The notes beneath the pieces were generated by a model. That model had not been told where the DNA came from. It did no database searches and worked only from the letters and a program-made list of their open reading frames with translations. The position numbers were made by a program, and so were the translations under genes. Shown here one piece after another: positions 147 through 39,596 of a stretch of DNA of 54,143 nt (its first letter is position 1; each line of letters opens with the position of its first letter). The DNA is from a virus (taxonomy: Duplodnaviria > Caudoviricetes), in the IMG/VR virus record IMGVR_UViG_3300006750_000012, positions 1 to 54,143 of that record. One strand, 5' to 3'.

Positions 147-360
147 CAGCGCCAGCCAACATAGTATCAAACGGGAAGATTTTCTACGTGTGGACCTGGA
201 CAGTGTCAAGGCGGAAATTTTTCACTTGCGCAGCGCCAGCCACCATAGTATCAAACGGGAAGATTTTCTACGTGTGGAGCGCCAGCCACCATAGTATCAA
301 ACAGGAAATTTTCTACGTGTGGACCTGGACAGTGTCAAGGCGGAAATTTTTCACTTGCGC
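147..360. repeat. Direct-repeat array A-B-A-A-B (A ~46 nt, B ~37 nt), reminiscent of the T5 terminal/injection-stop repeat region
   Basis: A = gcgccagccaccatagtatcaaac(g/a)ggaa..ttttctacgtgtgga at ~148, 232, 279; B = cctggacagtgtcaaggcggaaatttttcacttgcgc at 195, 324. Confidence 0.9.
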
Positions 361-383
361 CGCGGCCCTGGATTTGCTATAAT
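355..383 (+). promoter_or_regulatory. sigma70-type promoter
   Basis: TTGCGC-17-TATAAT with TG extension. Confidence 0.55.
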
Positions 384-433
384 ATTTTTATCAAGTGGGA
401 AGACACTCAGATTTCAAACGAGAAAATTCCCAC

Positions 434-462
434 TTGAAATGAAAGGCTTTTTGCCTTATAAT
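434..462 (+). promoter_or_regulatory. T5-type strong sigma70 promoter
   Basis: TTGAAA-17-TATAAT. Confidence 0.8.
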
Positions 463-511
463 ATATACATAATTTGAGAAATGGCTCAGATTTAACTTTT
501 TTAGCAGGAGA

Positions 512-895
512 ATGGATATGACCGAAAAACGTTATACCGATGAGTTTGTAACGGAACTCCGTACCCGTTACACCGAAGCCGAAGGTTATGAGGCAGAGCA
601 GGCGGTTATCAAAGAGATCGCCAATGAGACGGACTTCACGGTTCCCCAGCTTCGTGCGAAGCTCGTAGCCGAGAAGGTCTACAACGCGAAGCCCACGGTT
701 CCCGCTGGTAAGCGTCGAGTTCGCAAGGCCGAACTGGTAACCCAGCTGGCAACGCTTGTTGGTGAGCCCGAAGAGACGGTCGAAACCTTTGAGAAGGCCA
801 ACGCAAAGGCCCTGGAGATCGTAGTTGGTCGCCTGCGCGCTTGGAAAGCGCGTGCCGAGGCTGCCGAGGCTGTCGAGGCTGTCGAAGCCCAGTAG
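512..895 (+). CDS. T5 A2-like small DNA-binding protein
   Basis: GGAG RBS; pattern LRAKLV..KVY..K / RKAELV / FEKAN..LE resembles T5 A2 as recalled. Confidence 0.65.
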   Translation: MDMTEKRYTDEFVTELRTRYTEAEGYEAEQAVIKEIANETDFTVPQLRAKLVAEKVYNAKPTVPAGKRRVRKAELVTQLATLVGEPEETVETFEKANAKALEIVVGRLRAWKARAEAAEAVEAVEAQ

Positions 896-910
896 ACTGT
901 TCAAGTCGGA

Positions 911-936
911 GGAGCCCCGTTCAGGGGCTTCTTTTT
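911..936 (+). terminator. Rho-independent terminator
   Basis: GGAGCCCC-gttca-GGGGCTTC followed by TTTTT. Confidence 0.8.
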
Positions 937-3798: not shown

Positions 3799-4452
3799 AT
3801 GCGACACATTTGGAGTATAGCAGCAGTAATTGTTTTGGCGGCAGCGGCGGTAATTGCGCAGGCCGAGGTGACTGGCAATATCGGTTGGGATAGTGACTAC
3901 GTTTTCCGTGGCGTACCGCAGAGTGAATCGTCGGCCAGCGGTGGCATCGACTGGGAAGGCGATTCAGGTTTCTACCTGGGTACCTGGGCCGCAGATGTTG
4001 GTGATGGTCTGGAAATCGATTACTACGGTGGCTGGGGGGCCGAAACCGATAGTGGTTTCAGTTATTCCGTCGGCTACACGCTGTATGACTATACCGGCGA
4101 CTTCGATGAGGAATACCAGGAAGTTAATCTGGGTGTCGGCTTTGGTTGGCTCTCGCTGGATATTTCCATAGGTGAATGGGACGGCGACGGGGACGGCGAC
4201 GACTACACCAACTACGAACTAACCGCTGAACGCAATGGCTTCTTCGTAACGCTTGGCAGTTGGGGTGACGACTTTGACGCCGATTACCTCAAGCTGGGTT
4301 ACGCCACCGAGATCGCCGGCATAGATGTGACTAGTTACTACGTGTACAGCAACGCAGCCTTCATTTACGGCAGCGACTCGAACGTGGTCGTTCAGGTCAG
4401 CAAGAGTTTCTCTTTCGAGCAGGTTGCAGATGCTTTTAACGGCACCGAGTAA
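3799..4452 (+). CDS. TorF-family (gcw_chp-like) putative outer-membrane porin
   Basis: Signal peptide; SDYVFRGVPQ, GGIDW, GFYLGTW, EIDYYGGW motifs; visibly GC-richer than its flanks. Confidence 0.8.
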   Translation: MRHIWSIAAVIVLAAAAVIAQAEVTGNIGWDSDYVFRGVPQSESSASGGIDWEGDSGFYLGTWAADVGDGLEIDYYGGWGAETDSGFSYSVGYTLYDYTGDFDEEYQEVNLGVGFGWLSLDISIGEWDGDGDGDDYTNYELTAERNGFFVTLGSWGDDFDADYLKLGYATEIAGIDVTSYYVYSNAAFIYGSDSNVVVQVSKSFSFEQVADAFNGTE

Positions 4453-4484
4453 CGCTTTACGAGCCAGCAAATGGAAAAAATATT

Positions 4485-4934
4485 ATGAAGATATTCCGTT
4501 GGAATAATCCTTATGGTAAATATGCAGTAGTTGCATTTGTAGTTGCATTTGCATTACTATATGTACGTGAGTGTCAGGCCGATGTATGGTTTCAAGCAGG
4601 ATATGGGACTGAAAACAGTTTTAACTTGCTGGAGCCAAAGAACTTGGCTATTGAAGGAGCTTATGTATATAAAGACGATTGGGAAGTGGCTACGGGGTAT
4701 AGTAATATGTGGTATCTTAGTGGTACTCGTGTAGTTAATTACCGATCTTTATTCCTTAACCTAGGATTAGGAGTAAATGAAACTAATGAAAACTTGCCTA
4801 AGTGGTGGAATTTTAGTTTAGGCGCAGGTTTCAATATAAAGAAGTGTAGAGTACAATTCCGACACTTTAGTAATGCAGGAATTGAAAAGCCTAATAGAGG
4901 TGAAAATTGGATACTATGGGGATGTAAAATATGA
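4485..4934 (+). CDS. pagL: PagL-like lipid A 3-O-deacylase (outer-membrane beta-barrel)
   Basis: C-terminal RHFSNAGIEKPNRGEN matches the PagL H-x-S-N-A-G...P-N-x-G catalytic motif; N-terminal signal-like segment. Confidence 0.75.
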   Translation: MKIFRWNNPYGKYAVVAFVVAFALLYVRECQADVWFQAGYGTENSFNLLEPKNLAIEGAYVYKDDWEVATGYSNMWYLSGTRVVNYRSLFLNLGLGVNETNENLPKWWNFSLGAGFNIKKCRVQFRHFSNAGIEKPNRGENWILWGCKI

Positions 4935-6967: not shown

Positions 6968-6995
6968 TTTTACAGTAATAAACAGGAAACTTTTT

Positions 6996-7460: not shown

Positions 7461-8010
7461 CCTACTGAGGCGTTTGACATCATCCGGCCCAAATAAATAT
7501 CAATTAAATAGGGAGACGATAGTCGCTAAACGTCTATAAATAAAAGAGATACTGTACTGGGCCAGTATATGTCCACCTGAGGCGTGAGATAAAGCCCGAG
7601 TATATATCAGGTAGTCTATGGCAATCGACATAAAAACTTTGCTACCAGAGAATTGATAGTAGGTCCTGGTATATTGAAGTGAACTATCATTAAATCCAAG
7701 TATACAGCTGAAATAATAGACTAAGGTACTTGGTTAGTGGCGCTGCCTAGCGCAGAAAACAAGTAAGGTGTCTGTCCGAGACATTAAATCGAGATGTGAT
7801 AAGGTCCCACTCTAAAAGACCTGTACGTCGACAACGTCCTGAGCATGACAAAAAGCTGCTTAAGTCTTGTGAATCATACGCATCCAAGCCAGTGCTTCTG
7901 GAAGTAACCGGAGGAAATACACACTGAGGTTCTCCTGGTCTGTCCTTAAAAGATCAGGACTATTATACAAGCTAGTTGCTCTCAGAAGGTTCTGACGATC
8001 AGTGGCAAGA
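7461..8010 (+). ncRNA. Putative ncRNA island: tandem H-type pseudoknots and hairpins
   Basis: At least six S1-S2-S1'-A-rich-S2' units; no ORF. Confidence 0.55.
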
Positions 8011-9207
8011 CGAAAGGAACAGGTGATGAATAAAAATATTCTGGGGATTCATGGGAATTTGCTGCGCTCTGATGTGCGTTATGGTTCTGATGAACTCGTG
8101 AAAGCATGGGATCGTAATGGGTTTCATTATCTCCGCTTGCCAGGTGGTAGTTCAAATCATTGGTATCAGTGGAAAACAGGAATATTCCACGAAAACAACT
8201 GGAGTTTTGTTGGGGATACGTCTGAGAAAGATCGGTACATGATTTTTGGGGCTAACAAGGCTCGTGAAACGCACGGGGCATATCTTGTTAATGACATGAT
8301 TGATTTTCTGATTGAAACAGGGACTGAGTATTCTTATGTTGTAAACGCCGCAGAGCCTTTTCAGAATCATCGTGATTTTCTGAAGCACTGGAAAGCCAGT
8401 GGTTTAGACTTGAAGAACGTTGAGTATGGGAATGAGATGTACACACCGCAGAAATATGCGGAATTTGAAAATGTGCAGATGTATACTGACAAAGCTAAGA
8501 ATTTTAACTATGTGCTTAAACAAGATTTTCCTGATGCTAAGTTGGGACTTACTGTGTCGATGGAGGCTTTCAAACCTCATAAGCCGGGAGCTAAACGGGA
8601 CGAATTATTACACTGGGATGAAGGTATCCGCAATCAAGAGTGGCGCGATGCGAACATTATTCACTTTTATGCGACTCCCGCTGTCAATTCAGCGTGGGGG
8701 AAATGGTCAGCAAATGAAGTATCCTATTACACTGCGCTGAATCATTGGAATAAGTATTTTGAAGAAGCAGTTAGCACATGGGATGACAAACCAATATGGG
8801 TAACTGAGTGGGGAGTCTATCCGTGGCCGCGAACACAGGGAGAACCAGAACTCTACTCATACTTGAGTTCCAAGTATAATCATTTGTTTGTTGCTCATGC
8901 GCTTATCGAAATGATGCTGGAACCGCGCATCACGCTAGCTGCCTATCATTCATGGACACAGCTACTGGAAGGTAGCGGTATAAACGCAGAGTTGGCAGAA
9001 CCTGGTTGTAACGCAACAAAGGAAGTGTTCAAAGTATTTGGTGAACTTACCAACGAGACACCGGAAAGAGTTGGTATACGAGGACACGGCTGTACGGGAG
9101 TTAAGCTCGGAAACACTTTGATTCTGGTCAACAGGATGGATCAAAAAAATATTGTCGAGGGCTGCGAAGTTCCCGCTCATTCAGTTATTGTCCGAAAATA
9201 TGTGTAG
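8002..9207 (+). CDS. Clan GH-A TIM-barrel glycoside hydrolase (GH51/GH44/GH79-like); likely start 8026
   Basis: LRLPGGS..WYQW, VEYGNE (acid/base), IWVTEWG (nucleophile). Confidence 0.75.
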   Translation: MARRKEQVMNKNILGIHGNLLRSDVRYGSDELVKAWDRNGFHYLRLPGGSSNHWYQWKTGIFHENNWSFVGDTSEKDRYMIFGANKARETHGAYLVNDMIDFLIETGTEYSYVVNAAEPFQNHRDFLKHWKASGLDLKNVEYGNEMYTPQKYAEFENVQMYTDKAKNFNYVLKQDFPDAKLGLTVSMEAFKPHKPGAKRDELLHWDEGIRNQEWRDANIIHFYATPAVNSAWGKWSANEVSYYTALNHWNKYFEEAVSTWDDKPIWVTEWGVYPWPRTQGEPELYSYLSSKYNHLFVAHALIEMMLEPRITLAAYHSWTQLLEGSGINAELAEPGCNATKEVFKVFGELTNETPERVGIRGHGCTGVKLGNTLILVNRMDQKNIVEGCEVPAHSVIVRKYV

Positions 9208-9712: not shown

Positions 9713-9896
9713 TAAAAGTTGCCCACAGGGTACCAAACATAGTAATAAACAGGAAATTTTTTTAAATGGGACTAGAATTATTTAACATAGTAATAGGTTC
9801 GCTATTAGTAGCCGGGGCCCTAACATGCTTTGCAAGACTTGTGGCGAGCCACGGAAAGGATAAACGTAAACGTAAACGCGTTTAAGCAAAGTATGA

Positions 9897-9996: not shown

Positions 9997-10025
9997 TTGA
10001 CAAGTATGGTCATTTTTGATATAAT
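9997..10025 (+). promoter_or_regulatory. sigma70 promoter upstream of tmRNA
   Basis: TTGACA-17-TATAAT. Confidence 0.9.
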
Positions 10026-10139
10026 ATATAAAATGGGAAAAAACCTACAATGATTGAATTACAAAAATGGCTTAAGGAAACCGATGCAGAATATGATAAA
10101 TTCTGTGAAAATTCCTTACCGATTGGATGAAGCAATAAC

Positions 10140-10378
10140 GCCTTGTGCGGACGCGGATAGCATTATTCCGCCTTCTCCACCAAATAAATATCTAAGAATT
10201 AATCGAGAAATACGCAGTCCAAATTAAAGGGGAAGAACAGATTCGACGGATAAGTAACGGGTTGTGGACAATCACGTACGAAAGTACAAAACATTAAACG
10301 CAAATGATGAAACATTCGCACTTGCTGCCTAAGGGTTAGCTGAGCTTGGCGGCTCGCTTGTAAACAGAAGTAGCCGCC
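10140..10378 (+). ncRNA. ssrA: Two-piece circularly permuted tmRNA, tag (A)ANDETFALAA*
   Basis: Acceptor piece ends CTTCTCC-A-CCA (10182). Coding piece starts GGGGAAG...GATTCGAC (10229) and gives a G3.U70 pair. Tag ORF 10300-10332. 5' boundary approximate. Confidence 0.9.
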
Positions 10379-10788: not shown

Positions 10789-10819
10789 TAGAATTTGAAA
10801 GGAGTAGGGTGCCAAATAT

Positions 10820-10982: not shown

Positions 10983-11009
10983 ATTTACAGTAGTAAACAG
11001 GAAATTATT

Positions 11010-20817: not shown

Positions 20818-21294
20818 GTGTCTGAACGCTATGCGTCTCAACAAAATCATGCTCTAATGCGTAGCATATTTATTGCTCTGCTTGGAGCATTTCTGTGTCT
20901 GAACACATCAGCCTCAGAACTAACATCTGAAGAAACCTGTCTAGCAAAGAATATATATTACGAAGCGCGAGATCAGTCGCGTCAAGCCCAATATGCCGTC
21001 GCTGCGGCAACTCTAAATAGAGTGTTAAACAGGAAATTTCCTAATACTGTTTGTGAAGTAGTTTATCAGCCCAATCAATTTAGTTGGTATTGGGACGGCA
21101 AATCTGATAATCCATATGAAACAGAAGCTTGGGAAGAAAGTAAAAAATTAGCTCGAATAATGTTGCAAATGTACCACAATGCCTACGATAACACTAAAGG
21201 TGCACTATTCTATAAGAAAGTAGGACACCCTAGTAGATACTTTAAAACATTAGAGTATATAACAACAATAGGCGACCATGAGTTTTATAGATGA
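20818..21294 (+). CDS. SleB-like cell wall hydrolase (Hydrolase_2); likely start 20857
   Basis: CLAKNIYYEAR, LNRV...FPNTVCEVVYQ..QFSW, IGDHEFY. Confidence 0.9.
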   Translation: MSERYASQQNHALMRSIFIALLGAFLCLNTSASELTSEETCLAKNIYYEARDQSRQAQYAVAAATLNRVLNRKFPNTVCEVVYQPNQFSWYWDGKSDNPYETEAWEESKKLARIMLQMYHNAYDNTKGALFYKKVGHPSRYFKTLEYITTIGDHEFYR

Positions 21295-25032: not shown

Positions 25033-25401
25033 ATGGCAGAAAAGAATGCTTGGACAGATGAGCTAAAAGCTGAGGTCATTGAGGAATATCAGTCCCGTGA
25101 ACCTACGCCCGAGAATAGTACGGAGATTGTCGGTGAACTAGCCGAAGAGTACAATCAAAAACCTAATGGTGTTCGTATGATTCTGGTTAAAGCCGGTGTC
25201 TATATTAAGAAGGATCCTGAAAAGAGTTCTTCAAAAACCAGTACTGGTGGAAGTAAACGCGTTAATAAAGCGGAAGCTATTGATGGTCTTAAGTCTGCAA
25301 TTGAAGATGCGGGCCAAGAAGTGGACGAAGATATTGTGTCTCGCCTTACAGGTAAGGCTGCCGTTTATTTCACTGGGGTTATTACTGCCGTAAATGGCTA
25401 G
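25033..25401 (+). CDS. D3: T5 D3-like DNA-binding protein
   Basis: WTDELK..NGVRMILVKAGVYIKK..RVNKAEA..LTGKAA.YF; synteny. Confidence 0.8.
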   Translation: MAEKNAWTDELKAEVIEEYQSREPTPENSTEIVGELAEEYNQKPNGVRMILVKAGVYIKKDPEKSSSKTSTGGSKRVNKAEAIDGLKSAIEDAGQEVDEDIVSRLTGKAAVYFTGVITAVNG

Positions 25402-26395: not shown

Positions 26396-27326
26396 AGAAG
26401 CATATTACGAAGGTAAACCCTTTATTTCAGATTCCCAATATGATGCTCTAGTAGACTTATATGGAGAAGATTCTGTAGGTAGTCAAGTAGGAGCAGATAT
26501 TCCTCACTATCGTAAGATGTACAGTTTAGATAAGGTGTATGAGGGAGAATATAACGGTGATACTCCTGTGGACAATCCAGATGACTGGATCGTTACACAT
26601 AAGTTAGATGGAGCAGCTATTTCTATCCTATATATAGGCAGAGTAATGGCGCAAGTATTAACTAGAGGAGACGGAACCAGAGGAATAGATATTTCTGATT
26701 TATTCCGACATACTGATTTAATTCCTCAAGTATTACCCCCTAACTGTCCAGGTATTGTTCAAATTAATGCCGAGGTAGCTACAGTCAAAACTACCCCTAA
26801 TGCTAGAAATTATGCTTCAGGGGCTTTAGGGCTTAAAAGTAAGGATGAGTTTCTAAAAAGAGACTTAAAAGTATTTGCATATAATCAATATCCACATGCT
26901 CCTACGCACAAAGAAGATTTATATGGGTTATATCATCACGGTTTCACGTATGTTCCATTAGCTTTAGATATTGCAACTGAAGAATTTGAGTATCCAACTG
27001 ATGGATATGTATGGAGGATTAATGATAATCAATTATACAAAACTATGGGATTTACCAGTCATCACCCACGAGGTGCAATTGCTGTTAAAGAACGTTCTGA
27101 GGGCGTTAAAACGACCCTTCTCGACGTCAAGTGGCAAACAGGAAAATCCGGTAAAGTCACGCCGGTTGCTATTCTCAGTCCGGTTAATATTAACGACGCC
27201 ATCGTCTCAAGAGCCACGTTAAATAACGTAGGATTTATTGAGGCCCTCGGACTCGAAATAGGCGACGCGGTAATGGTAGAGCGTGCTGGAGATATTATCC
27301 CTAGGATTATTAAGAAAGCCGAATAA
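26367..27326 (+). CDS. ligA: NAD-dependent DNA ligase subunit A (adenylation + OB)
   Basis: MYSLDK, HKLDG, TRGDG, NARNYASG, SRATLNN, RAGDIIP. Confidence 0.93.
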   Translation: MAQNYIKLAKEAYYEGKPFISDSQYDALVDLYGEDSVGSQVGADIPHYRKMYSLDKVYEGEYNGDTPVDNPDDWIVTHKLDGAAISILYIGRVMAQVLTRGDGTRGIDISDLFRHTDLIPQVLPPNCPGIVQINAEVATVKTTPNARNYASGALGLKSKDEFLKRDLKVFAYNQYPHAPTHKEDLYGLYHHGFTYVPLALDIATEEFEYPTDGYVWRINDNQLYKTMGFTSHHPRGAIAVKERSEGVKTTLLDVKWQTGKSGKVTPVAILSPVNINDAIVSRATLNNVGFIEALGLEIGDAVMVERAGDIIPRIIKKAE

Positions 27327-27390: not shown

Positions 27391-27397
27391 ATATAAA

Positions 27398-28141
27398 ATG
27401 AAAATAGAAATTCCAACAACTTGCCCTTCTTGCGGCGCAGCATTAGAACTTGTCAATGCACAGCTCTTTTGCCGGAATAAATCTTGTAAAGCACAATCTT
27501 TTAAGAAGATTGAGACCTTTGCAAAAAATATGAAAATAAAAGGCTTAGGTCCAAGGACTATAGAAAAATTAGAACTTGAAACCATTCCTGATATTTACAT
27601 ATTAACAGAATCTTGTTTGGTGGAAAGACTAGGCGAAAAAATAGGTAAAAAATTACATGGTGAAATTAATAAGTCTAAAATATGTGAATTTTCAACCTTT
27701 TTAAGCGCACTCAGTATTCCGCTGATAGGTAAAACAGCAAGTAAAAAAATTGCTGAAGCAGGTTTTAATTCTATAATAGATTTATGGGATTATAGTCATC
27801 ATGATATACTTGGTCCAGTAGCTAGTTCAAACCTAGCGGATTGGGTAAATGACTTTGGTCCAGAATATTATGATCTACCATTAGAGTTTATCAAACCTAA
27901 ACCTGCAACAACTAAACGATTAGGAAAAGTATGTATAACTGGGAAGTTAAACGATTTCCGAAATCGAACTGAAGCATCCAAATTTCTAGAAGAGATAGGA
28001 TATACAGTAACAACGACAGTAAGTAAACAGACTGACTTTCTAGTTTGCGAAGATGGTTCTTCATCTAGTAAAACGAAGAAAGCGAAACAGTTAAATATAC
28101 AAATAGTATTAATTAAACAACTAGAGGAAATTGCTAAATGA
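27398..28141 (+). CDS. ligB: NAD-dependent DNA ligase subunit B (Zn finger, HhH, BRCT)
   Basis: CPSCG..C..C, IKGLG, VCITGKL, SSKTKKA. Confidence 0.92.
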   Translation: MKIEIPTTCPSCGAALELVNAQLFCRNKSCKAQSFKKIETFAKNMKIKGLGPRTIEKLELETIPDIYILTESCLVERLGEKIGKKLHGEINKSKICEFSTFLSALSIPLIGKTASKKIAEAGFNSIIDLWDYSHHDILGPVASSNLADWVNDFGPEYYDLPLEFIKPKPATTKRLGKVCITGKLNDFRNRTEASKFLEEIGYTVTTTVSKQTDFLVCEDGSSSSKTKKAKQLNIQIVLIKQLEEIAK

Positions 28142-28839
28142 GTAATTGGAATGAAGAGAGAGAAGCAACTCTCCGTAATATAGTAGGTGAAGGTCCCGTT
28201 TCACGTGAGACAGTTAGCCTAGCTGCAGAGGAGTTAGAAGTTTCTGATCGCTCTGTGGGTGCTAAGCTGCGTAAGCTTGGTTATGAAGTAGAAAAGGCTG
28301 GTGCTCGTCCTAAGACGTTCACAGATGAGCAGGAAGAAGCTCTACGTGCCTTTGTTGAAGGTAATGCCGGTGCGTTTACGTATGCCGAGATTGCCGAACA
28401 GTTCCCGGGTGACTTTACACCTCGTCAGATTCAGGGTAAAATCCTGAGCATGGAACTTCATGAAGCAGTTGCTTCTGCTCCCGTCAAAGAAAGTGTTAAA
28501 AAGTACACTGACGAAGAAGAGGCAACGATTGCTAAGCTGGCTGATGCGGGTGCATATCTTGAGGATATCGCTGAGGCAGTTAATAAGCCTTTGAACTCGG
28601 TTCGCGGTAAGTGTCTGTCGATGCTTCGCAACGAAACAATCGCTAAGATCCCTACGCAGCGCGATGTTGTTTCTACTACAAAAGTAGACATCTTCGAGGG
28701 CGTAGATACAACTCAGTTCACAGTTGTACAGCTGGCAGAGAAGTTTGAGAAGACGGAGCGTGGCATTAAAGTTATGCTAACAAACCGTGGAATCGACGCT
28801 TCTGACTACACGCACAAAAAGAAAAAAGCTGCTGCTTAA
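28138..28839 (+). CDS. D5: T5 D5-like transcription regulator
   Basis: RSVGAKLRKLGY, IQGKILSMEL, NSVRGKCLS; synteny. Confidence 0.85.
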   Translation: MSNWNEEREATLRNIVGEGPVSRETVSLAAEELEVSDRSVGAKLRKLGYEVEKAGARPKTFTDEQEEALRAFVEGNAGAFTYAEIAEQFPGDFTPRQIQGKILSMELHEAVASAPVKESVKKYTDEEEATIAKLADAGAYLEDIAEAVNKPLNSVRGKCLSMLRNETIAKIPTQRDVVSTTKVDIFEGVDTTQFTVVQLAEKFEKTERGIKVMLTNRGIDASDYTHKKKKAAA

Positions 28840-28865
28840 TTTCTTCCTGCTAAGAAGTTAAGACC

Positions 28866-28897: not shown

Positions 28898-28953
28898 CGC
28901 CTTTAAAAAGGGTCAAATAATTTCAATTAAAAAGCCAATAATACGAGGAAACA

Positions 28954-30315: not shown

Positions 30316-31181
30316 ACGTAGAAGATTTATTGACTGAGGAAACTATAAAGTATTATTCTCAGGGACAAGATTACGTAATTAGATGCCTTTCTCCTGATCA
30401 TGAAGATAAGCACCCAAGCCTACGTATAGATAGAGTTTCCGGGGTGTTTAACTGTTTATCCTGTGGATTTAAAGGTAATATCTTTACCCATTTCGGTAAA
30501 AAAGTAAGTATACTAGATACGAAATCAGCAGGTATTAAGAAGAAGATTCAGAAGATCAGAGCTAATATGAACTTAGAGATGCCTCAGGATGCGAGAGATT
30601 TTGAACATGAATATCGTAGTATTAAACAGGAAACTTTATTAAAATATGAAGCATTTAATAGTGATCAACTAGAAGATTTTGAAGATAGAATTATATTTCC
30701 TATTCGTAATTTATATGGAAGTATTAAAGCTTTCTGTGGACGTAGAACATTCTCTGATGCAGATCCTAAATATAGATTTTATCCTAAGAATGCGGCAGTT
30801 CCCTTATTCCCAGCAAGACCCGATAAAATAATTAACAACTCTGTTATATTAGTAGAGGGTATATTTGATGTATTAAACCTCATTGATAAGGGACTACCAA
30901 ATGCTTTATGTGCGTTCGGTACTAATAAGTTACAAAAACAAGAGAACTTTCAGAAGATTGAATATTATGAAATTCTGGGGGTAGATAAAATATACATTAT
31001 GTTTGATGGCGACGAAGCTGGAAGAATTGCCACAGGCAAAACAGAGGCGGCATTAAAGAAACATTACGCCATAGAAACAATAGAATTACCAGAGGGTAGA
31101 GACCCTGGAAGTCTTGATAAAGACGAAATAGAATATATTAAGGAAAGCTTGTATGGAAGTAGCAGTAATAGAAAAGAATAA
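30312..31181 (+). CDS. DNA primase
   Basis: CHC2 zinc finger; TOPRIM LVEGIFD, FDGDEAG, DPG. Confidence 0.92.
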   Translation: MNVEDLLTEETIKYYSQGQDYVIRCLSPDHEDKHPSLRIDRVSGVFNCLSCGFKGNIFTHFGKKVSILDTKSAGIKKKIQKIRANMNLEMPQDARDFEHEYRSIKQETLLKYEAFNSDQLEDFEDRIIFPIRNLYGSIKAFCGRRTFSDADPKYRFYPKNAAVPLFPARPDKIINNSVILVEGIFDVLNLIDKGLPNALCAFGTNKLQKQENFQKIEYYEILGVDKIYIMFDGDEAGRIATGKTEAALKKHYAIETIELPEGRDPGSLDKDEIEYIKESLYGSSSNRKE

Positions 31182-33372: not shown

Positions 33373-33733
33373 AGATTGGGAAATAAAAATTGATGCCGAT
33401 GCTATTGATAAGTATGTAGTATCTCGTAGTTTTAATACAAAAGATAAGGTAAGAAAAAACAAGGTTGATTTATCCGACTTAGAGCAGATGGAACTTGATT
33501 CAATGTATCCGAGTGAAGATGATCCAATTAATCCTGACTATTATAAGGTTGGTGGCATTGAGTCTATTGATGTTATTGAGGCTAAGTTAACCCCCGAAGA
33601 GTTTCGTGGATTCCTTAAAGGTACTGCTCTTAAGTACCAGCTAAGAGGTAATTGGAAAGAGAACGGACGCCAAGACTATGAAAAAGCACAATGGTATATA
33701 GATAGGCTCCTAAATGCCGACACCAAGTTATAA
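33356..33733 (+). CDS. DUF3310 (SaV-like) protein
   Basis: INPDYY..GGIESIDVI..GFLKG.ALKY..R..K.NG.QD.EKA.WY. Confidence 0.8.
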   Translation: MPKQVKDWEIKIDADAIDKYVVSRSFNTKDKVRKNKVDLSDLEQMELDSMYPSEDDPINPDYYKVGGIESIDVIEAKLTPEEFRGFLKGTALKYQLRGNWKENGRQDYEKAQWYIDRLLNADTKL

Positions 33734-34223
33734 TTTCCCAATGTGGCGACTTCCGCGCCATAATAATATAGAAGAAAAGCTGGGAAAGGTTATAATTAAA
33801 ACTCAGCACGGTAAGTACTTACTTGATGACCATTATTATAAAGGTAACTTATCGCAACGCAGAATTAAAATGCGATCCGTAGCCATGGGTAAAACTTACC
33901 CTTTAAAACATAAAGTAGATACCCTACGTCAGTTAGTAAAACACAAAACTGGCACAAAGTTTATAGATATTAATGGAAAGATTTTTAAGTATAAAAAATC
34001 TTCTAAAAAACAATATAGCATCACTTGTCTATCTATAATTAATTATCAATATATAAATGGACAAGTAGTATTTTGGGTACAAGGTATTAATGAGCCTTTT
34101 ACAACACCCCATAAATTTGATTGGGACTATCTTCCTTATGCTTCAATTATGAATACTGAGCACGGGCCTTTTTTATATGACTTGGTAACTGAATATCATG
34201 AACCTTATCGCCGCAAAATCTAA
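33714..34223 (+). CDS. T5-like conserved hypothetical protein
   Basis: Synteny between pol and D10; FIDINGKIFKY. Confidence 0.7.
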   Translation: MPTPSYNFPMWRLPRHNNIEEKLGKVIIKTQHGKYLLDDHYYKGNLSQRRIKMRSVAMGKTYPLKHKVDTLRQLVKHKTGTKFIDINGKIFKYKKSSKKQYSITCLSIINYQYINGQVVFWVQGINEPFTTPHKFDWDYLPYASIMNTEHGPFLYDLVTEYHEPYRRKI

Positions 34224-35508
34224 AGCAGTTTTAAGTAACAGAATCTATCTTCACGCGGATGCTTCACTCCGGGTCAAACTCCGAGAAGAGCTTTCCTATA
34301 AAATTCCGAGTAAAATTTTTGGTAATCCGCCAGATACCAAGTGTACTCTGAGAAATTGCGAAAATGATATTGTAAGTATTCCAATAGGCAGACTTGATCT
34401 CATTCCAAAAGATTACACAGTAGTAGATAAAAGAATATCTATTCCTACTGAATTTCCCGAATTTAAATTTACCCTTCGAGAATCACAACAAGAAGTATAT
34501 GAAGCGATTGAAGATTGCGCTTTGATAAATGCGAATGCCTCGTGGGGCAAAACCTTTACTGCGATAGCAATTTCAAAAAAATTTTCCCAGAAAACACTTA
34601 TTATCGTTCATAATTTGTTTTTGAAAGATCAATGGGTCGAGGAAATTCAAAAAACTTTAGGCATCACACCGGGAATTATATCAGGCGGAAAAATCAATCA
34701 TGATTCACCTATCACTATAGCCAATATTCAAACTTTACGTAAGTATGCATTAGCACTACGCAAAGAGTTTGGACTTATAATAGTTGATGAGGTTCATAAG
34801 GCCCCCGCTAAAGAATTTGAGCATACATTAGATACATTTAAAGCTAGGTATAAAATAGGTCTGAGTGCCACTCTAAGAAGAAGAGATCATTTACATGTAG
34901 TATTGCCCGACTATTTTGGTCCAGTAGTCTACAGACCGAAGAAAGAAAACCAAATGGAACCTGAAGTATTAATGGTGAATACCGGGATTACTTTAAATTC
35001 CAATATGATGATTCCTTGGGCAACAAAAATAAATGAGTTAGTAAATAATCCAGCCTTTTTAGAGCTAGTCTCGGACCTATCTTTTTCTTATTCCGAAGCA
35101 GGTTACAAGGTTCTAACATTGTCAGATAGAACAGAGTTTCTAGAAAGACTGTATGATAGACACCCAGATATGAGCATGCTAGTAATTGGCACAACAAAAA
35201 ATCGTAAAGAACTACGAGATTTAATGGAAAAAGATAAAAACTTAAATATTTGCTATGGAGCGATTTCTATATTTAAAGAAGGTGTTTCTTGGAACTTTTT
35301 AAGTTGTTTACTTATAGCTACCGCCGTAAATAATGATCCCATGCTAGAACAGTTGATAGGGAGAGTGCAGAGAGTGTATCCTAATAAATTAAAGCCTGTC
35401 ATTGTTGACTTTATATTCAAGGGAGGCACAGGTAAAAGGCAAGCACAAGCTAGAGCAGCTTTTTATATGAGACAAGGGTTTTCTATTAAGTACGTGGAAC
35501 TAAACTAA
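34198..35508 (+). CDS. D10: SF2 helicase (T5 D10-like)
   Basis: WGKT, DEVH, GLSAT, QLIGRVQR. Confidence 0.9.
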   Translation: MNLIAAKSKAVLSNRIYLHADASLRVKLREELSYKIPSKIFGNPPDTKCTLRNCENDIVSIPIGRLDLIPKDYTVVDKRISIPTEFPEFKFTLRESQQEVYEAIEDCALINANASWGKTFTAIAISKKFSQKTLIIVHNLFLKDQWVEEIQKTLGITPGIISGGKINHDSPITIANIQTLRKYALALRKEFGLIIVDEVHKAPAKEFEHTLDTFKARYKIGLSATLRRRDHLHVVLPDYFGPVVYRPKKENQMEPEVLMVNTGITLNSNMMIPWATKINELVNNPAFLELVSDLSFSYSEAGYKVLTLSDRTEFLERLYDRHPDMSMLVIGTTKNRKELRDLMEKDKNLNICYGAISIFKEGVSWNFLSCLLIATAVNNDPMLEQLIGRVQRVYPNKLKPVIVDFIFKGGTGKRQAQARAAFYMRQGFSIKYVELN

Positions 35509-35517
35509 AAATAGTTC

Positions 35518-35546
35518 TTGACATTTTTCAAAAATTTTGTTATAAT
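35518..35546 (+). promoter_or_regulatory. sigma70 promoter
   Basis: TTGACA-17-TATAAT. Confidence 0.9.
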
Positions 35547-35552
35547 ATTATA

Positions 35553-35963
35553 ATGATAAAGTATAATTGGGAAAAGGTAAAAAGGATCGGAGATTACGAA
35601 CCTACAAAGATATTACAATATTTTTGTTTTAAAGAAGGAATCTGGGTTTCCAACTACTTACCTAAAGATTATTCGAAAAAGATTTATTCAGCAGCAACTG
35701 AGCCATATCCTACTGGAAGTAGTTATATGTTGAATATTAGGCCTGTATTAATGAATAAAGAAAACTACTTTATTGATGATATATGGGACTATATAAAACT
35801 GGCAAGTATGCGTTCTTTATTTGAATATAAAATGCAGAATGTTATTACATTACCAGTAGTAATTGCAAAAGTAGCAAGAGTGGACTTAATTAATCCACTA
35901 ATACAGATAGATAATGGAAATATTCATTTTAAACATGAACAGAGAAAACAGAGGAGTAGCTAA
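35553..35963 (+). CDS. T5-like conserved hypothetical protein
   Basis: Synteny; YIKLASMR, NPLI.I. Confidence 0.7.
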   Translation: MIKYNWEKVKRIGDYEPTKILQYFCFKEGIWVSNYLPKDYSKKIYSAATEPYPTGSSYMLNIRPVLMNKENYFIDDIWDYIKLASMRSLFEYKMQNVITLPVVIAKVARVDLINPLIQIDNGNIHFKHEQRKQRSS

Positions 35964-36631
35964 TGGCTATTAAATTTAAAGACCTAAAGGGCAAGGCTAG
36001 TGGCAGCGGACTTCCCAGAATGAAGTTTGTTAACGGAATTAATACATTCCGTATCGTTTCTAGTGTTGTGCCGATGTATAAGTATTGGCTGAAAACTAAA
36101 GATGGTCAAACAATGCCAATGGAAAATTTAGCTTTTGATAGAGATGAAGAAGCTTTTACTGGAAAACAGAAAGATTGGGTTAAAGAGCTTGTAAAAGATG
36201 AGGACGGAGAACAGAAAAGAAGTTCTTGGGCGTACTCATGTTTTGTAATTGATCGCTCAGATAATACTGCTAAGATTCTTGATCTGAAGAAAAAGATGTT
36301 GGCCCAAATTATTCATGCGGCTAAGAAAATCGGAGATCCTTCAGATCGTGAAAATGGTTGGGATATTGTTGTTGATCGCCAGTCAACTGGTAATCAGGTA
36401 TACAACGTTGAATATACCCTTGAAACGTTCGATCTTGAGAACAAACCATTAAGTGAGAAGGACCTTGAACTTATTAAGGACCTTCCTGATATTGAAGAGT
36501 ATCTGCGTCGTCCAACACCGGAAGAACAGAAGAAGTTTATTGAGGAGCGTATCCTTGGTGAAGTTGATGATGAAACTGCTGATGAAGAAGCGGTTGAGGC
36601 GCTGGATAGCGACGATATTCCGTTTGATTAA
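35963..36631 (+). CDS. D11: Single-stranded DNA-binding protein (T5 D11-like)
   Basis: Acidic tail ending DDIPFD; synteny. Confidence 0.8.
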   Translation: MAIKFKDLKGKASGSGLPRMKFVNGINTFRIVSSVVPMYKYWLKTKDGQTMPMENLAFDRDEEAFTGKQKDWVKELVKDEDGEQKRSSWAYSCFVIDRSDNTAKILDLKKKMLAQIIHAAKKIGDPSDRENGWDIVVDRQSTGNQVYNVEYTLETFDLENKPLSEKDLELIKDLPDIEEYLRRPTPEEQKKFIEERILGEVDDETADEEAVEALDSDDIPFD

Positions 36632-36635
36632 TGAA

Positions 36636-36654
36636 AGGGGCTTCGGCCCCTCTT
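36636..36654 (+). terminator. cUUCGg hairpin, weak terminator or stabiliser
   Basis: AGGGGC-TTCG-GCCCCT. Confidence 0.55.
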
Positions 36655-36666
36655 ACGGAGAAATAT

Positions 36667-36858
36667 ATGCCTACGAGAGCGCAAATTAAACGTCAAAAAC
36701 GAAAAGAGCGTAGAGACGCTAAAAATGCTGCCCGCCGATCAGCTGAAAGAGCTGTGACAATTGAAGAAGAAGCCGAAGAAATTGAAGAGGCTGAAGAGAC
36801 TGAAAAAGTCGAAAAAGAAAAGCCCTTTCTTGAAACATGGACAAAACTAGTAGGATAA
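36667..36858 (+). CDS. Small basic/acidic protein
   Basis: GGAG RBS before ATG 36667. Confidence 0.55.
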   Translation: MPTRAQIKRQKRKERRDAKNAARRSAERAVTIEEEAEEIEEAEETEKVEKEKPFLETWTKLVG

Positions 36859-36871
36859 ACAGTAGTAAAGA

Positions 36872-37816
36872 ATGAACGTATTATTCACCGCAGATTTACA
36901 TATAAATCTTAGACAAAAAAATGTACCTAAGAAGTGGGCTATCGCTAGATATAGAGATATGTTTAGTGAGATGGACCGTGTATTTGATTCCAGTAAATGT
37001 GATCTAATAGTATTCGGTGGTGATATATTCGATAAGAGCCCTTCTCTAGAGGAGTTAGGGCTCTTCTTTTCTTACCTTTGGAAACATCCAGAGAGAGAAA
37101 CTATCATATATGATGGTAATCATGAAGCTACTAAAAAAGGAGATACCTTTTTAAAGCATTTATATAGTATGTGTCCTCCTGGTTCTCAAATTGTTTTGAA
37201 TAAAGTTTTTATACAAGGTATGTTTTTCTTACCATATTGTAAACTGAAAGACTGTGAGCGCCCTGCCGCAAAAATATGTCTAACTCACGTACGAGGAGAA
37301 ATACCTCCGCACGTAAAACCTGAAGTAGACCTAGATATGTTTAAAGATTGTGATATAGTGTTCGCGGGAGATTTACATGCGCACAACAACAGTCAAAGAA
37401 ACATAGTATATCCAGGATCTCCCGTAACTGTAACTTTTCACCGTAATCCAGTATCTACTGGAGTAATTGTATTTAATACTGATGCTCCTAAAGAATGGAA
37501 ATGGGAAGAAATAAATGTGCCACAATTAATAAGAAAAACAGTGACAGATCCTAGTGATATAATAGACAATCATTATGATCATACCATTTATGAATTAAAA
37601 GGGGATATACTCGATCTATCAAAAGTAGTTGATAGCGACCTGTTAGATAAGAAGATAGTAGAACACAATAGTGAAGCTACCCTTGACCTGCAGGAGCTAA
37701 GCATGGAAGAAGAGATAGCATTATATTGCTCAGAAATACTACAGCTACCTAATGAAAAAATAACCAATTTATTAAAGGTATATAATGATAACACTCAAGG
37801 AGCTAACTTGGAGTAA
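36872..37816 (+). CDS. D12: SbcD/Mre11-like nuclease (T5 D12-like)
   Basis: ADLH, GGDIFD, GNHE, GDLH, YPGSP. Confidence 0.92.
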   Translation: MNVLFTADLHINLRQKNVPKKWAIARYRDMFSEMDRVFDSSKCDLIVFGGDIFDKSPSLEELGLFFSYLWKHPERETIIYDGNHEATKKGDTFLKHLYSMCPPGSQIVLNKVFIQGMFFLPYCKLKDCERPAAKICLTHVRGEIPPHVKPEVDLDMFKDCDIVFAGDLHAHNNSQRNIVYPGSPVTVTFHRNPVSTGVIVFNTDAPKEWKWEEINVPQLIRKTVTDPSDIIDNHYDHTIYELKGDILDLSKVVDSDLLDKKIVEHNSEATLDLQELSMEEEIALYCSEILQLPNEKITNLLKVYNDNTQGANLE

Positions 37817-39596
37817 TGTACTTTCTTATCAAGATAAATGCCGCATCCAATTAGATAAAGACCCACTAACTCAGTTAGTAGGGGATAACGGTGCAGGTAA
37901 AACAACTATTCCTATTATTATCCAAGAGATAATGTATGGAAAAAATACCAAGAATATTAAGAAGCAAGATCTGGTTAATCGTCATTCTGGCGTAAAAGGT
38001 TATAAAATCATTTTAACCTTTCAAAAAGACAACGATACATATGATATTGATCTTGATAGAAAGACTACTATAAAGCTTCAACTTTATAAGAATGGCGAGA
38101 ATATTTCTAGTCATAAAAGCTTGGATACATACAAGCAAATAGCAGAGATTATCGGAATTTCTGACTTTAAAACCTTTGCACAATTAGTATACCAAAGTTC
38201 CACTGGAAGTTTGGAGTTCTTAACTGCAACCGACACAAACAGAAAAAGATTCTTAATTAGCTTATTACAACTAGAAAAATATATAGAATTACACGAACTA
38301 TTTAAGGTTAAACTACGTAAGAAGAGTAGCGAACTCAGTAATATTGAAGGAAAAATCGATGTTACTGAGGCTTGGATTATGAAAAATGAAAGATTAGATT
38401 TAACTGAAAAAGAGCTGCTTCCCGTCCCAGACAGTAGTAAACAGGAAAATATTTTAAAACAAATAGGTGAGTTAGAAAAACAAATAGAAAACGTTAAATC
38501 TTCCAACCAAAAAATTGTAAATAATAATCAATATATAGTAGATATTGAAGAACTAAGTTTTGATCCAGTAATAGCCCCTCCCCCAGATGTAACAGACCAA
38601 GAAATACGCATAGTCGAAGCAGATAGAACTAGAGCTGAAACTAGAATTAAAACGTGTAATGGTTCTTTAAAGAACCTAAATACAGAAGAACGCATCTGTC
38701 CCTCTTGTAAACAAACCATTCCAGCTAGTGATAGTAAGGATATGGAGCTGCATTTAAAAATGAAAATATCTGAGTTAGAGGATGTAGTAGAGGAAACTAT
38801 AGAAATACGCAATGAACTAGTAGATGCTAGACAAAAATATCTTATCTGGAAAAAAGACAAGGCTCAGTGGGAAAAACTATTACTACTTATAGATAAAGAA
38901 CTACCAAAGGAAACTTATAGTAAGTCCGCAATGGAAACTTCTGTAGGTCAACTTAAAGATAGTTATAATAGATTAGAAAGAGAAAGAAAAGAGTTTGTAG
39001 AACACAATAACGAAGTCTCAGCACATAATGCTAAAGTAATAGTTATTAAAGAACAGCTCGAAGAATACACTAAGAATCTAGAAAAGTATCTAGATCAAGG
39101 CGATGATATTAAAAACGAAGCTGATCTTATAGACGTTCTTAAAAAGATATTTAGTACTAACGGCCTAGTTAGTTATAAAATCGAGTCCTCAGTAAAAAGC
39201 TTAGAGCAAGCTATAAATGAGTATCTAGCAGAGTTTAGCTACTTTCAAATCTTCTTTAAACTTGAAAAAGATAAATTAAATATTCAGGTAATTGATGAAG
39301 CAGGTGAAGAAACAACAGTTGAAGGTTTATCTGCAGGTGAATTAGGCAGAGTTAATATTGCAACGGTTTTAGCAATCAGAAAAATTATGAGTTCCTTAAC
39401 TTCTACAGAAGTCAATTTTCTATTCTTAGACGAGATAGTAGGAGTTCTAGATTCTAATGGAAAAGAGAAATTAGTAGAAATACTATTACGTGAGAACTTG
39501 AATACATTTATAGTAGCTCACGAATTCGACCACCCATTAGTTCCGAAGTTACATATAGTTAAGGAAAACAATAGATCTAGGATTGAAGATGGTTGA
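37785..39596 (+). CDS. D13: SbcC/Rad50-like ATPase (T5 D13-like)
   Basis: GDNGAGKT, CPSC zinc hook, LSAGE, LFLDE. Confidence 0.93.
   Translation: MITLKELTWSNVLSYQDKCRIQLDKDPLTQLVGDNGAGKTTIPIIIQEIMYGKNTKNIKKQDLVNRHSGVKGYKIILTFQKDNDTYDIDLDRKTTIKLQLYKNGENISSHKSLDTYKQIAEIIGISDFKTFAQLVYQSSTGSLEFLTATDTNRKRFLISLLQLEKYIELHELFKVKLRKKSSELSNIEGKIDVTEAWIMKNERLDLTEKELLPVPDSSKQENILKQIGELEKQIENVKSSNQKIVNNNQYIVDIEELSFDPVIAPPPDVTDQEIRIVEADRTRAETRIKTCNGSLKNLNTEERICPSCKQTIPASDSKDMELHLKMKISELEDVVEETIEIRNELVDARQKYLIWKKDKAQWEKLLLLIDKELPKETYSKSAMETSVGQLKDSYNRLERERKEFVEHNNEVSAHNAKVIVIKEQLEEYTKNLEKYLDQGDDIKNEADLIDVLKKIFSTNGLVSYKIESSVKSLEQAINEYLAEFSYFQIFFKLEKDKLNIQVIDEAGEETTVEGLSAGELGRVNIATVLAIRKIMSSLTSTEVNFLFLDEIVGVLDSNGKEKLVEILLRENLNTFIVAHEFDHPLVPKLHIVKENNRSRIEDG

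Follow-up and report, generated by a model that had tools for sequence, protein, structure and literature searches.

The window analysed here (54,143 nucleotides) is the whole of a 54-kb contig and covers part of the genome of a phage of marine metagenomes, T5-like but distant, which by its sequence is assigned to the T5 lineage. The assembly consists of this contig alone, with one contig end falling within a tail-fibre gene. A near-identical phage is present in four other metagenomes; apart from it, searches for relatives returned none above ∼45% protein identity. The + strand is purine-rich (GC skew and AT skew both positive).

The left end carries an array of repeats (144..364, + strand) with units arranged A-B-A'-A''-B' (A 46–51 nt, B ∼38 nt) in GC-rich surroundings with few genes. 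The third A-type unit contains one exact copy (AGTATCAAACAGGAAA, 293..308, +) of a 16-base motif, AGTRNYAAACAGGAAA, and the array holds four degenerate variants on the same strand, two with 2 mismatches (AAACGGGAAG, at 163 and 247) and two with 3 (AAGGCGGAAA, at 202 and 331). A' and A'' differ by two substitutions and one deletion, all within the motif core, the remainder of the unit being identical. The only start codon in range downstream of the copy at 293 is a GTG of doubtful coding value. A further degenerate relative, TCAAACGAGAAAATT (414..428, +), lies in the loop between the two arms (391–401/427–437) of a perfect 11-bp inverted repeat, and immediately downstream of the array lies a gene for an A2/D3-family DNA-binding protein (512..895, +).

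The seven other exact copies are dispersed and all on the + strand. Three are placed closely upstream of small genes: the intergenic copy at 6974..6989 has its AGGA 8 nt upstream of the ATG at 6996 (64-aa ORF), the intergenic copy at 9741..9756 begins 5 nt past a GGTACCA and has its AGGA 11 nt upstream of the ATG at 9766 (39-aa membrane-like ORF), and the copy at 10989..11004 lies 6 nt past a tRNA-like GGTGCCA end and 7 nt upstream of the TTG at 11010 (DUF551 ORF), being in frame 0 if that ORF starts at the GTG at 10977. Four lie within genes, namely a SleB-type cell-wall hydrolase gene (20818–21294; copy 21021..21036, reading RVLNRK), ligA (26367–27326; copy 27130..27145, reading KWQTGK), the primase gene (30312–31181; copy 30618..30633, reading SIKQE), and D13/SbcC (37785–39596; copy 38433..38448, reading SSKQE), which holds the rightmost copy. 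A 2-mismatch copy of uncertain status (AGTGGAAAACAGGAAT, 8168..8183, +) falls within the ORF at 8002–9207. Besides the A2/D3-family product, candidate binders of the motif would be a D3 orthologue (25033..25401, +; 42% identity to T5 D3) and a D5-like DNA-binding or transcription regulator (28138..28839, +).

Number, exactness, and strand of the copies

The initial annotation had listed these eight copies, the four array variants, and the four genes that contain copies, and our scan returned all of them as described. AGTRNYAAACAGGAAA occurs eight times, spread over the early half of the phage and always on the + strand (expected 0), and none of 100 dinucleotide-preserving shuffles contained any match. 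Its 10-base core, AAACAGGAAA, is found 8 times on the + strand and never on the − strand (expected 0.27), so the exclusive + strand placement first noted by eye is borne out. The motif is far too frequent and too exact to have arisen by chance. The copies have unrelated flanks and are therefore not duplicated segments.

Thirteen specified bases are invariant in 8/8 copies, as is a T two bases past the motif (the 18th base), giving the fuller form (A)(Y)AGT-RNY-AAACAGGAAA-N-T. The motif had been described as usually followed by TT; TT follows directly in only 4/8 copies, whereas any base followed by T does so in all eight. When read on the − strand, six of the eight copies terminate in TACT, and the next two bases are R and T in six copies each.

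No copy with exactly one mismatch exists in the window. The copies with two or three mismatches in the left array and at 8168 all lie on the + strand (5/5), and the remaining 3-mismatch matches are biased to the same strand (10/12). The late region (43.4–54.1 kb) lacks copies with ≤ 2 mismatches on both strands, as had been reported, and its four 3-mismatch matches are at chance level; as the observed density would predict ∼2 copies in these 10.7 kb of late genes, finding none there carries no statistical weight. The earlier description of a cluster at the genome end was overstated: the four variants are there, as parts of a recent tandem duplication, but only one exact copy is, and position 1 of the contig need not be the physical end of the genome.

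All eight copies are sense-oriented relative to the surrounding genes, which makes DNA polarity and transcript polarity inseparable within the window.

Selection on the copies within genes

The four genic copies are spread over three reading frames and, as the initial annotation held, do not encode a shared protein motif. Synonymous-codon shuffles (n = 1000) yielded a mean of 0.099 coding copies against the four observed, and a total that never exceeded six against the eight observed; the enrichment over shuffled controls thus extends to codon-preserving ones. Minor codons are used in these copies: GTG (12% of Val codons) and AGG (10% among those for Arg), both present in the copy at 21021, and AAC (29%). 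Those in LigA, primase, and D13 substitute residues at variable positions: T5 LigA has EWQVGA where KWQTGK is read here, T5 primase has GISSK in place of SIKQE, and SSKQE lies in a variable stretch aligned to a gap in T5 D13. These observations show that the motif is maintained in coding DNA despite codon preference, and they support a polar cis-element selected at the nucleotide level that is neither a protein motif nor a mere Shine-Dalgarno sequence.

The same evidence bears on the view that there is nothing special here, only a duplication relic or a Shine-Dalgarno context on a purine-rich sense strand. This phage often uses AGGAAA for ribosome binding, the + strand is purine-rich, and 3-mismatch matches lean to it, but the composition-preserving shuffles (0/100), the synonymous shuffles (0.1 vs 4), and the unrelated flanks leave this view a probability close to nil, and the two kinds of shuffles refute it for practical purposes.

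Signals in transcription and translation

The caveat that AGGA in the intergenic copies could simply be a Shine-Dalgarno sequence applies to three copies and leaves both the 16-mer and the genic copies unexplained. A spacing of 5–12 nt to a start codon is found at 3/8 copies (6974, 9741, and 10989) and not at 21021, 27130, 38433, or 30618 (16 nt), and 9–10 invariant bases upstream of AGGA have no counterpart in a Shine-Dalgarno sequence, which we reject as the general identity of the motif.

A broader possibility is a signal acting on early transcripts as RNA: an RNA-binding protein of phage or host might bind or cleave there, with effects on translational control, processing, or stability, or the motif might be a non-template-strand site for a factor travelling with RNA polymerase. 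The sense orientation of 8/8 copies fits such a signal, as do the three intergenic copies with AGGA 7–11 nt upstream of a start codon, AGGAAA being the typical ribosome-binding site of this phage. Two copies lie 5–6 nt past tRNA-like ...CCA ends, matching the inter-tRNA spacing in the cluster, and predicted folds leave the motif region mostly unpaired. Against this, 4/8 copies lie deep in genes with a start codon out of range, and there is no common fold (76-nt MFE −6.5 to −19.7 vs a background of −12.9 ± 4.7). The six Rfam 15 matches in the window at gathering score (five tRNA, one permuted tmRNA) include none at a motif copy, and the + strand offers no antisense partner (0/11 TTTYYTGTTT matches). 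Of the 47 proteins scanned against Pfam, none matched a NusG/RfaH-like or RNA-binding family. Compared with known RNA-binding sites, 13–14 invariant bases are long. We regard an RNA-level role as distinctly unlikely; antitermination, one of the options first proposed, is weakened by the lack of both a shared structure and an antisense partner.

Exact, co-oriented words of 15–23 bases every few kb are typical of T7-type phage-polymerase promoters. The motif resembles these in exactness, orientation, and few-kb spacing, and its three copies closely upstream of small genes would suit a promoter, or promoter part, for an RNA polymerase redirected through an appropriator or a phage sigma, or for a phage polymerase that has gone unrecognised. 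However, none of the scanned proteins (69, of which 47 against Pfam) matched an RNA polymerase or sigma family, and T5-type phages rely on the host enzyme, for which the window contains at least 14 strong T5-type sigma-70 promoters, none at the motif. Moreover, the four mid-gene copies have no gene start downstream, no −10-like element lies at a constant distance from the copies, and the late-gene block is devoid of copies, so that we consider a promoter highly improbable. A sigma-70 promoter in particular is rejected: none of the listed promoter-like sites (≥ 10/12 matches) overlaps a copy, and no −35/−10 hexamers at proper distances surround any of them. The spacer of the T5 early promoter P-N25 (tcaggaaaatttttctg) resembles ACAGGAAATTTTCTAC of the left-end copy, a likeness that is probably a chance match of A-tract and T-tract.

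Relation to T5 direct repeats and nick sites

According to the initial annotation, no described T5 element has this sequence. That stands for the sequence but not for the architecture, which has a parallel in T5 direct repeat D (DRD), a co-oriented 15-mer, TGTGCRAATCCGACA. With ≤ 2 mismatches allowed, DRD occurs 12 times on the + strand and never on the − strand in 112 kb of T5 (annotated copies 1–12, AY587007), with nine sites at the terminal-repeat end, while two fall within D13 and a single one within ORF019. In T5-like IMG/VR contigs, a scan that selected exact DRD matches recovered the D13 copy again, as well as that beside nick 1. Arrays occur in other phages too: the terminal repeat of Vibrio phage Ceto contains a related array of co-oriented TTTGCACC, and phage D342 carries an array of its own. 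Like DRD, the motif is an asymmetric one-strand word that follows the sense strand of the D genes and has copies in coding DNA, including D13; the array at 144–364 may in addition correspond to the DRD cluster, which in T5 occupies untranslated repeat DNA near the pre-early genes.

The two elements differ in several respects. The sequence likeness is not significant, since the best match to DRD in the window has three mismatches and 87/100 shuffles equal it. Their distributions are reversed, with one exact and four to five degenerate copies clustered and seven of eight exact copies dispersed here, compared to nine clustered and three dispersed sites in T5. The copy at 38433 is not at the aligned site of T5 DRD 11/12 within D13, and T5 DRD copy 10 runs antisense to the gene around it, while every motif copy is sense.

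In view of this parallel, the motif could be a protein-binding site of the DRD type that involves no nicking, its binder occupying tandem sites in the terminal untranslated region plus a small number of high-affinity ones along the early region. The binder could be the A2-like protein, D3, the D5-like protein, terminase, or an organising factor, and the proposed roles are packaging, DNA entry, chromosome organisation, and early-gene shut-off. A tandem array of degenerate variants immediately upstream of an A2-family gene, with the A'/A'' changes restricted to the motif core, is what such a site might look like. On the other side, the dispersed copies are all exact, whereas operators usually tolerate mismatches, and DRD itself has no established function; none was found in the available text of the Davison preprint or by literature search. 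We hold this possibility to be rather doubtful, yet among the four mechanisms listed initially, which were A2/D3/D5 binding, a transfer or packaging signal, nicks, and RNA antitermination, a protein site and programmed nicks remain the best.

The reading that we tentatively prefer, at a probability of roughly 35%, is that of a polar site at the DNA level that marks programmed nicks. Nicks in T5-lineage phages are confined to one strand (PMC10644984; T5 record annotation). Those of T5 were recognised as early as the 1960s and, as stated in PMC3517423, still lack an accepted function and a sufficient recognition rule. According to the same paper, all 14 nick sites of phage tf share one strand and a 9-base consensus; the consensus of phiKMV-like phages is bipartite, with 15 specified bases; known nick sites lie both within genes and between them; and the nick-dense half is reportedly packed first. 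The motif is similarly confined to one strand, exact, both genic and intergenic, and present in few copies per genome (known sites number few to 14 and are exact or nearly so), and, as at known nick sites, its consensus is common to all copies and rare elsewhere in the genome.

Several lines of evidence favour this putative function. The T5 lineage is known for one-strand nicks, which are therefore to be expected in a member of it, and the motif occurs in exact copies, with none at one mismatch, which favours an enzyme site over a graded operator. One copy lies in an untranslated repeat region and the rightmost in D13, as do T5 nicks: where the T5 terminal repeat ends, the annotation shows a major nick in untranslated repeat DNA, and another nick lies within D13. 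The copy at 38433 lies ∼50 codons from the D13 position aligned to that nick. The T5 word GCGCRGG has no strand bias here (4 on the + strand, 5 on the − strand), so the phage, if nicked, must use another word. The TACT end of the motif on the − strand weakly resembles tf TACT/RT, a likeness of little information content.

Other observations disfavour nicking. The motif shares no sequence with the consensus words of T5/BF23 (R/GCGCRGG), tf (TACT/RTGMC), or phiKMV-like phages (CGACN5CCTA/CTCCGG), none of which departs from chance frequency in the window; tf TACTRTGMC has one match against 1.5 expected. T5 nicks lie on the strand opposite the sense strand of the D genes, whereas the motif is on the sense strand. 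Furthermore, the degenerate tandem array beside the A2-family gene resembles an array of protein-binding sites more than it does nick sites, and the 3/8 copies positioned exactly as ribosome-binding sites hint at a role in expression.

On balance, the motif is most likely read by a phage protein that handles DNA; we tentatively infer that it is read as DNA rather than RNA and that its reader is a nicking system. As a nick-marking site, it would serve a sequence-specific phage protein as a strand-specific recognition site, marking localized single-strand interruptions in one strand of the virion DNA that would be introduced late in infection or at packaging. In function it may then correspond, under a new sequence, to the nick consensus sites known from T5/BF23, tf/LUZ24-like, and phiKMV-like phages. 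Packaging motors follow one DNA strand, and the co-orientation of the copies could stem from an enzyme that moves one way along the DNA and meets each site in the same orientation.

A more general and speculative proposal, which we consider unlikely as a whole, is that each lineage of T5-type phages carries a strand-polar “address word” (DRD in T5, AGTRNYAAACAGGAAA here) that co-evolves with a conserved phage protein and is read by a one-way machine, such as a packaging or DNA-entry motor with a nickase; the binding and nick words would here be merged into one 18-base site.

The nearest known counterparts are T5 DRD and the one-strand nick consensus sites of T5, tf, and phiKMV-like phages. The site of this marine phage is far more informative than that of T5, with 13–14 invariant bases and eight exact copies, four of them within genes. 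If it is nicked or bound, its reader protein should be findable by pull-down or co-variation, and whether polarity follows packaging or entry would be testable. If the word proves merely a binding site, co-oriented “address” repeats would be a trait of the T5 lineage that reaches its uncultured marine members; if the merged address and nick word is true, it would provide the first sequence-level lead on the mechanism and purpose of one-strand nicking in T5-type DNA.

Copy number, strand bias, and selection on nucleotides

Exact matches to AGTRNYAAACAGGAAA occur eight times in the 54,143-base window, all on the + strand (pattern scan; starts at 293, 6974, 9741, 10989, 21021, 27130, 30618, and 38433), and in 0 of 100 dinucleotide-preserving shuffles. 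The motif is bipartite and asymmetric, with AGT, three loose bases, and ten fixed ones. This 10-base core, AAACAGGAAA, is found eight times on the + strand and never on the − strand (0.27 expected); no 10-mer of the window is repeated more often, and the −10 word of strong promoters equals it. By column count, the 18th base is T in 8/8 copies, the positions after it are T-rich, and A stands at −2 in 6/8; a second conserved element sought from −30 to +49 (64 columns) gave at best a G at +34 (7/8), which was not significant. With up to three mismatches allowed, 24 matches were obtained against 8.2 expected. Eight were exact and none differed at a single base; three had two mismatches (163 and 247, both within the left-end array, and 8168) and 13 had three, among which those at 202 and 331 lie in the left-end array and the others are at chance level. 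These scans recovered both the restriction to the + strand and the left-end variants (163, 247, 202, and 331) that the initial annotation had picked out by eye. Chance or base composition is a scarcely credible source of such a set.

Four copies lie in mid-gene, with no start codon in range of any, and they occupy three reading frames, in agreement with the earlier remark that their frames differ. The copy in the SleB-type hydrolase gene (21021, +) reads RVLNRK; that in LigA (27130, +) reads KWQTGK, with WQTGK here against WQVGA in T5; that in the primase gene (30618, +) reads SIKQE where T5 has GISSK; and that in the SbcC-like gene D13 (38433, +) reads SSKQE, in a stretch aligned with a gap in T5 D13. 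Relative to T5, the residues encoded by the LigA and primase copies substitute at variable positions, and the coding copies use minor codons (GTG, 12% of Val; AGG, 10% of Arg; AAC, 29% of Asn). When synonymous codons alone were permuted, with proteins and intergenic bases fixed (n = 1000), a codon-preserving control that the initial annotation had suggested, coding copies averaged 0.099 against four observed, and total copies never rose above six against eight observed. The motif is therefore kept by selection on nucleotides. Its length, exactness, bipartite asymmetry, and forced placement into genes whatever the frame argue for a recognition site of a sequence-specific reader, which would meet every copy from the same side.

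The four copies outside long genes are those at 293, in the left-end array, and at 6974, 9741, and 10989, each of the latter three on the + strand just upstream of a short ORF (AGGA 8 nt before ATG 6996, 11 nt before ATG 9766, and 7 nt before TTG 11010, respectively). Because AGGAAA is a usual ribosome-binding site of this phage, the 3′ half of the motif probably has a translational role at these three sites. The caveat that AGGA could simply be a Shine-Dalgarno sequence thus holds for the three intergenic copies, but it accounts neither for the invariant AGT-N3-AAAC nor for the four mid-gene copies. A role at the RNA level, ranked third, would suit the sense orientation of all copies and the double use of three of them as ribosome-binding sites, yet half of the copies are mid-gene and nothing else suggests RNA, and we consider it rather improbable. 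All copies stand among + strand genes, so polarity on the DNA and on the transcript is inseparable in the window; across the 12 kb of − strand genes, the observed density predicts only ∼2 copies.

Several further identities were rejected. No copy overlaps a sigma-70 promoter, and strong T5-type promoters with a conserved start region lie elsewhere; a promoter for a redirected polymerase is very unlikely. The copies have no common RNA fold (most are predicted unpaired), no Rfam family matches any of them, and no + strand sequence of the window pairs with the core, even with G-U pairs allowed. ECF-type or phage-sigma two-box promoters and IHF, CRP, CsrA-like, and Chi-like sites are unfit in spacing or length, as compared by eye with consensus words.

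The left-end array and its genomic setting

The tandem array at 144–364 has the units A-B-A′-A″-B′. A and A′ are 98% alike, as are B and B′, which makes the duplication a recent one. Every unit holds a motif-like word: A″ carries the exact motif, A and A′ share AGTATCAAACGGGAAG, and B and B′ share AGTGTCAAGGCGGAAA; the variant words of the array include AAACGGGAAG and AAGGCGGAAA. Two substitutions and one deleted base, all in the core, separate A′ from A″, and the units are otherwise identical. A further relative, TCAAACGAGAAAATT, sits in the loop between the arms of a perfect 11-bp inverted repeat (391–437). Each A unit terminates in TGTGGA, which makes up two thirds of a DnaA box and recalls the DnaA boxes reported in untranslated repeat regions of T5-like phages (Davison preprint). 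Promoter-like sites flank the array (94–122 on one side, ∼352–382 and 434–462 on the other), and it is located upstream of an A2-family gene at 512–895 (E = 8e-5 against T5 A2, in a single comparison). This degenerate tandem array beside an A2-family gene favours a binding word without nicking, of the type of DRD, the co-oriented 15-mer ‘direct repeat D’ of T5; the exactness of the dispersed copies counts against it, and we regard this reading, ranked second, as somewhat unlikely.

The first kilobase has a GC content of 52% vs 38% overall; the leftmost 1–1300 is GC-rich, yet shares the promoter type of the phage and the motif. A second repeat family at 1075–1180, with AAAAGGGGTAATTT-like direct units (1119–1158) facing a perfect inverted copy, TTACCCCTTTTA (1169–1180), sits between two convergent terminator-like hairpins and looks like another protein-binding array.

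The assembly consists of the 54,143-nt contig alone, and its right end breaks off within a tail-fibre gene. PHROG and Pfam scans identified a T5-type replication block in T5 order, including a D3 orthologue (25033–25401; 42% identity to T5 D3), a DNA polymerase (42% identity to T5-like polymerases), split NAD ligase A and B, a D5-like regulator (28138–28839), a DnaB-type helicase, primase, a D10-type helicase, D12/D13 (SbcCD), a PDDEXK endonuclease, a flap endonuclease, dUTPase, and ribonucleotide reductase. The + strand carries the genes from 3.0 to 43.4 kb, and the − strand those at 1300–2636 and from 43.4 kb to the end, the latter block encoding spanins, endolysin, and tail fibre; the sign of the GC skew switches together with gene direction.

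Eight tRNA genes and a permuted (two-piece) tmRNA lie at 9.9–13.9 kb. The tmRNA gene (10121–10332, +; Rfam RF04321, 75.5 bits vs a gathering threshold of 47) is just 3′ of a perfect sigma-70 promoter (9997–10025) within the tRNA cluster, and may be informative on the host group. GGTGCCA/GGTACCA ends at 10808–10814, 10976–10982, and 9729–9735 are followed by an A-rich spacer as after the eight called tRNAs, and an anticodon-loop-like CTCCAAA occurs in the stretch preceding 10982; these stretches may be degenerate tRNA-like genes uncalled by ARAGORN and Rfam. At two strong promoters (27362–27398 and 35518–35553), the ligB ATG (27398) and the ATG at 35553 are only 7 and 6 nt past the −10 hexamer, and both mRNAs look leaderless. 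The start region TATAAT-atataaaATGGRAAA is common to several other strong promoters, including one before tRNA-Pro, so the nearness of ATG to the −10 is partly a conserved initial transcribed sequence. Outer-membrane-type genes in the early region (3799–4934 and 14018–14545; Gcw_chp family, PagL-like lipid A deacylase domain, OmpA-like beta-barrel) identify the host as Gram-negative, and the phage may remodel its envelope. A 216-aa ORF at 11210–11860 matches just the N-terminal 88 positions of a C-5 cytosine methyltransferase model and may be truncated or split.

Comparison with T5 and other phages

Four unique major interruptions are annotated in T5 records; all lie on the − strand and share ...R/GCGCRGG. 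One is in the untranslated repeat region where the left terminal repeat ends, one in dnk, one beside a terminator, and one inside D13. In phage tf, all 14 nicks are reported on one strand, in TACT/RTGMC, and phiKMV-like phages have a bipartite nick word with 15 specified bases; the same source describes the T5 nick word by itself as too short to account for site choice, maps the T5 sci genes to the late region, gives nick function as unknown, and names the nick-dense half as the one probably packaged first (PMC3517423). As identities for the motif, three words were rejected: GCGCRGG shows no strand bias in the window (4 on +, 5 on −), and matches to the tf nick word and to T5 DRD occur at chance level. 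Positional homology with the T5 D13 nick was likewise rejected: the aligned position falls ∼50 codons 3′ of the motif, sharing its variable region but not its column. No candidate nickase of the HNH, GIY-YIG, or HUH families appeared among 47 proteins scanned against Pfam, from a contig without most of the late region.

A k-mer count on T5, done as for the window, identified TGTGCAAATCC(GAC) as the most repeated word confined to one strand. Allowing ≤ 2 mismatches, DRD occurs 12 times on + and 0 times on − in 112 kb, and these are exactly copies 1–12 of ‘direct repeat D’ in AY587007: nine straddle the inner boundary of the terminal repeat, ORF019 contains one, and D13 contains a tandem pair. 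DRD copy 1 begins 4 nt from major nick 1 (7.9%; AY543070 9748–9766), and D13 holds both the 64.8% nick (nick 4) and DRD 11/12, ∼360 nt apart (AY543070 78573; 78935–78964). Four T5-like IMG/VR contigs also carry the nick-1/DRD-1 pair, CCCTGCGC-(3–4 nt)-GTGCAAATCCGACA, and the D13 DRD copy likewise recurs among T5-like contigs of IMG/VR; the scan selected exact DRD and so documents recurrence rather than selection. Neither passages of the Davison preprint nor the listed results of a literature search yielded a DRD function or a link between DRD and nicking; the two may be linked in T5.

In the T5-like Vibrio phage Ceto, the terminal repeat includes a co-oriented TTTGCACC array with a core resembling the DRD reverse complement; Vibrio phage D342, also T5-like, carries its own array. 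Judging by these sequences, phages of the T5 lineage share the trait of clustering co-oriented words in the terminal untranslated region; among the comparators examined, T5 is the sole case with word copies also within genes. D342 (71975–97019) and Ceto (70118–112530) also repeat, 7 to 10 times, a cassette of ≥ 30 bases comprising a −10, leader, and ribosome-binding site (TATAATACTTGTATAGAATGAAGAAACGGAGA in D342, GTATAATAGTTACATAAAGTTGAGAAACGGAGAT in Ceto), whose ribosome-binding site AAACGGAGA is similar to AAACGGGAAG, one of the left-end array variants.

We found no near match to the window in the phage collection searched. Searches with primase and DNA polymerase against IMG/VR and metagenomes peaked at 41–45% identity (67% in one 58-residue stretch), and the core was present in 0/10 loci examined (of 23 retrieved). 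An IMG/VR scan for AGTNNTAAACAGGAAA matched at least 108 stretches; among the 80 matches listed, each was single and chance-like, and none marked a second genome using the word. Eighteen listed public runs contain the sequence, all marine metagenomes, with no RNA run among them. Contigs from four marine runs over 20950–38500 represent the same phage and show a total of 4 single-base differences (17.5 kb), too close for a synonymous-site test; as assembled contigs they carry no molecule-end information. Two contig ends (21026 and 27122), among 32 of 245 pieces, fall ≤ 10 nt from a motif copy (∼0.5 expected; not significant).

A possible nick-site role and the novelty of the motif

We rank first the possibility that the motif marks programmed nicks in one strand, at a probability of roughly one in three (∼0.35), because the documented process with such properties in this lineage is one-strand programmed nicking. 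The T5 nick word has no strand bias here, so a new word would be needed if the phage is nicked at all. Packaging motors track one DNA strand, and an enzyme travelling with, or acting like, a one-way DNA motor would explain the co-orientation of sites. Since a T5 DRD copy abuts nick 1, nick-site and DRD-type binding may be one and the same, with a single 18-base site doing both jobs. The remaining probability goes to roles outside those named. We infer all functional readings of the motif for a phage known only from metagenomes, through a contig that covers half of its genome and neither end.

As judged from the collections searched, where no copy-rich match occurs, the motif itself is new. Its kind is already known, as it belongs with the one-strand repeated words of T5-type phages (DRD and nick sites), from which it stands apart in its unusually high information content and unusual spread into genes.
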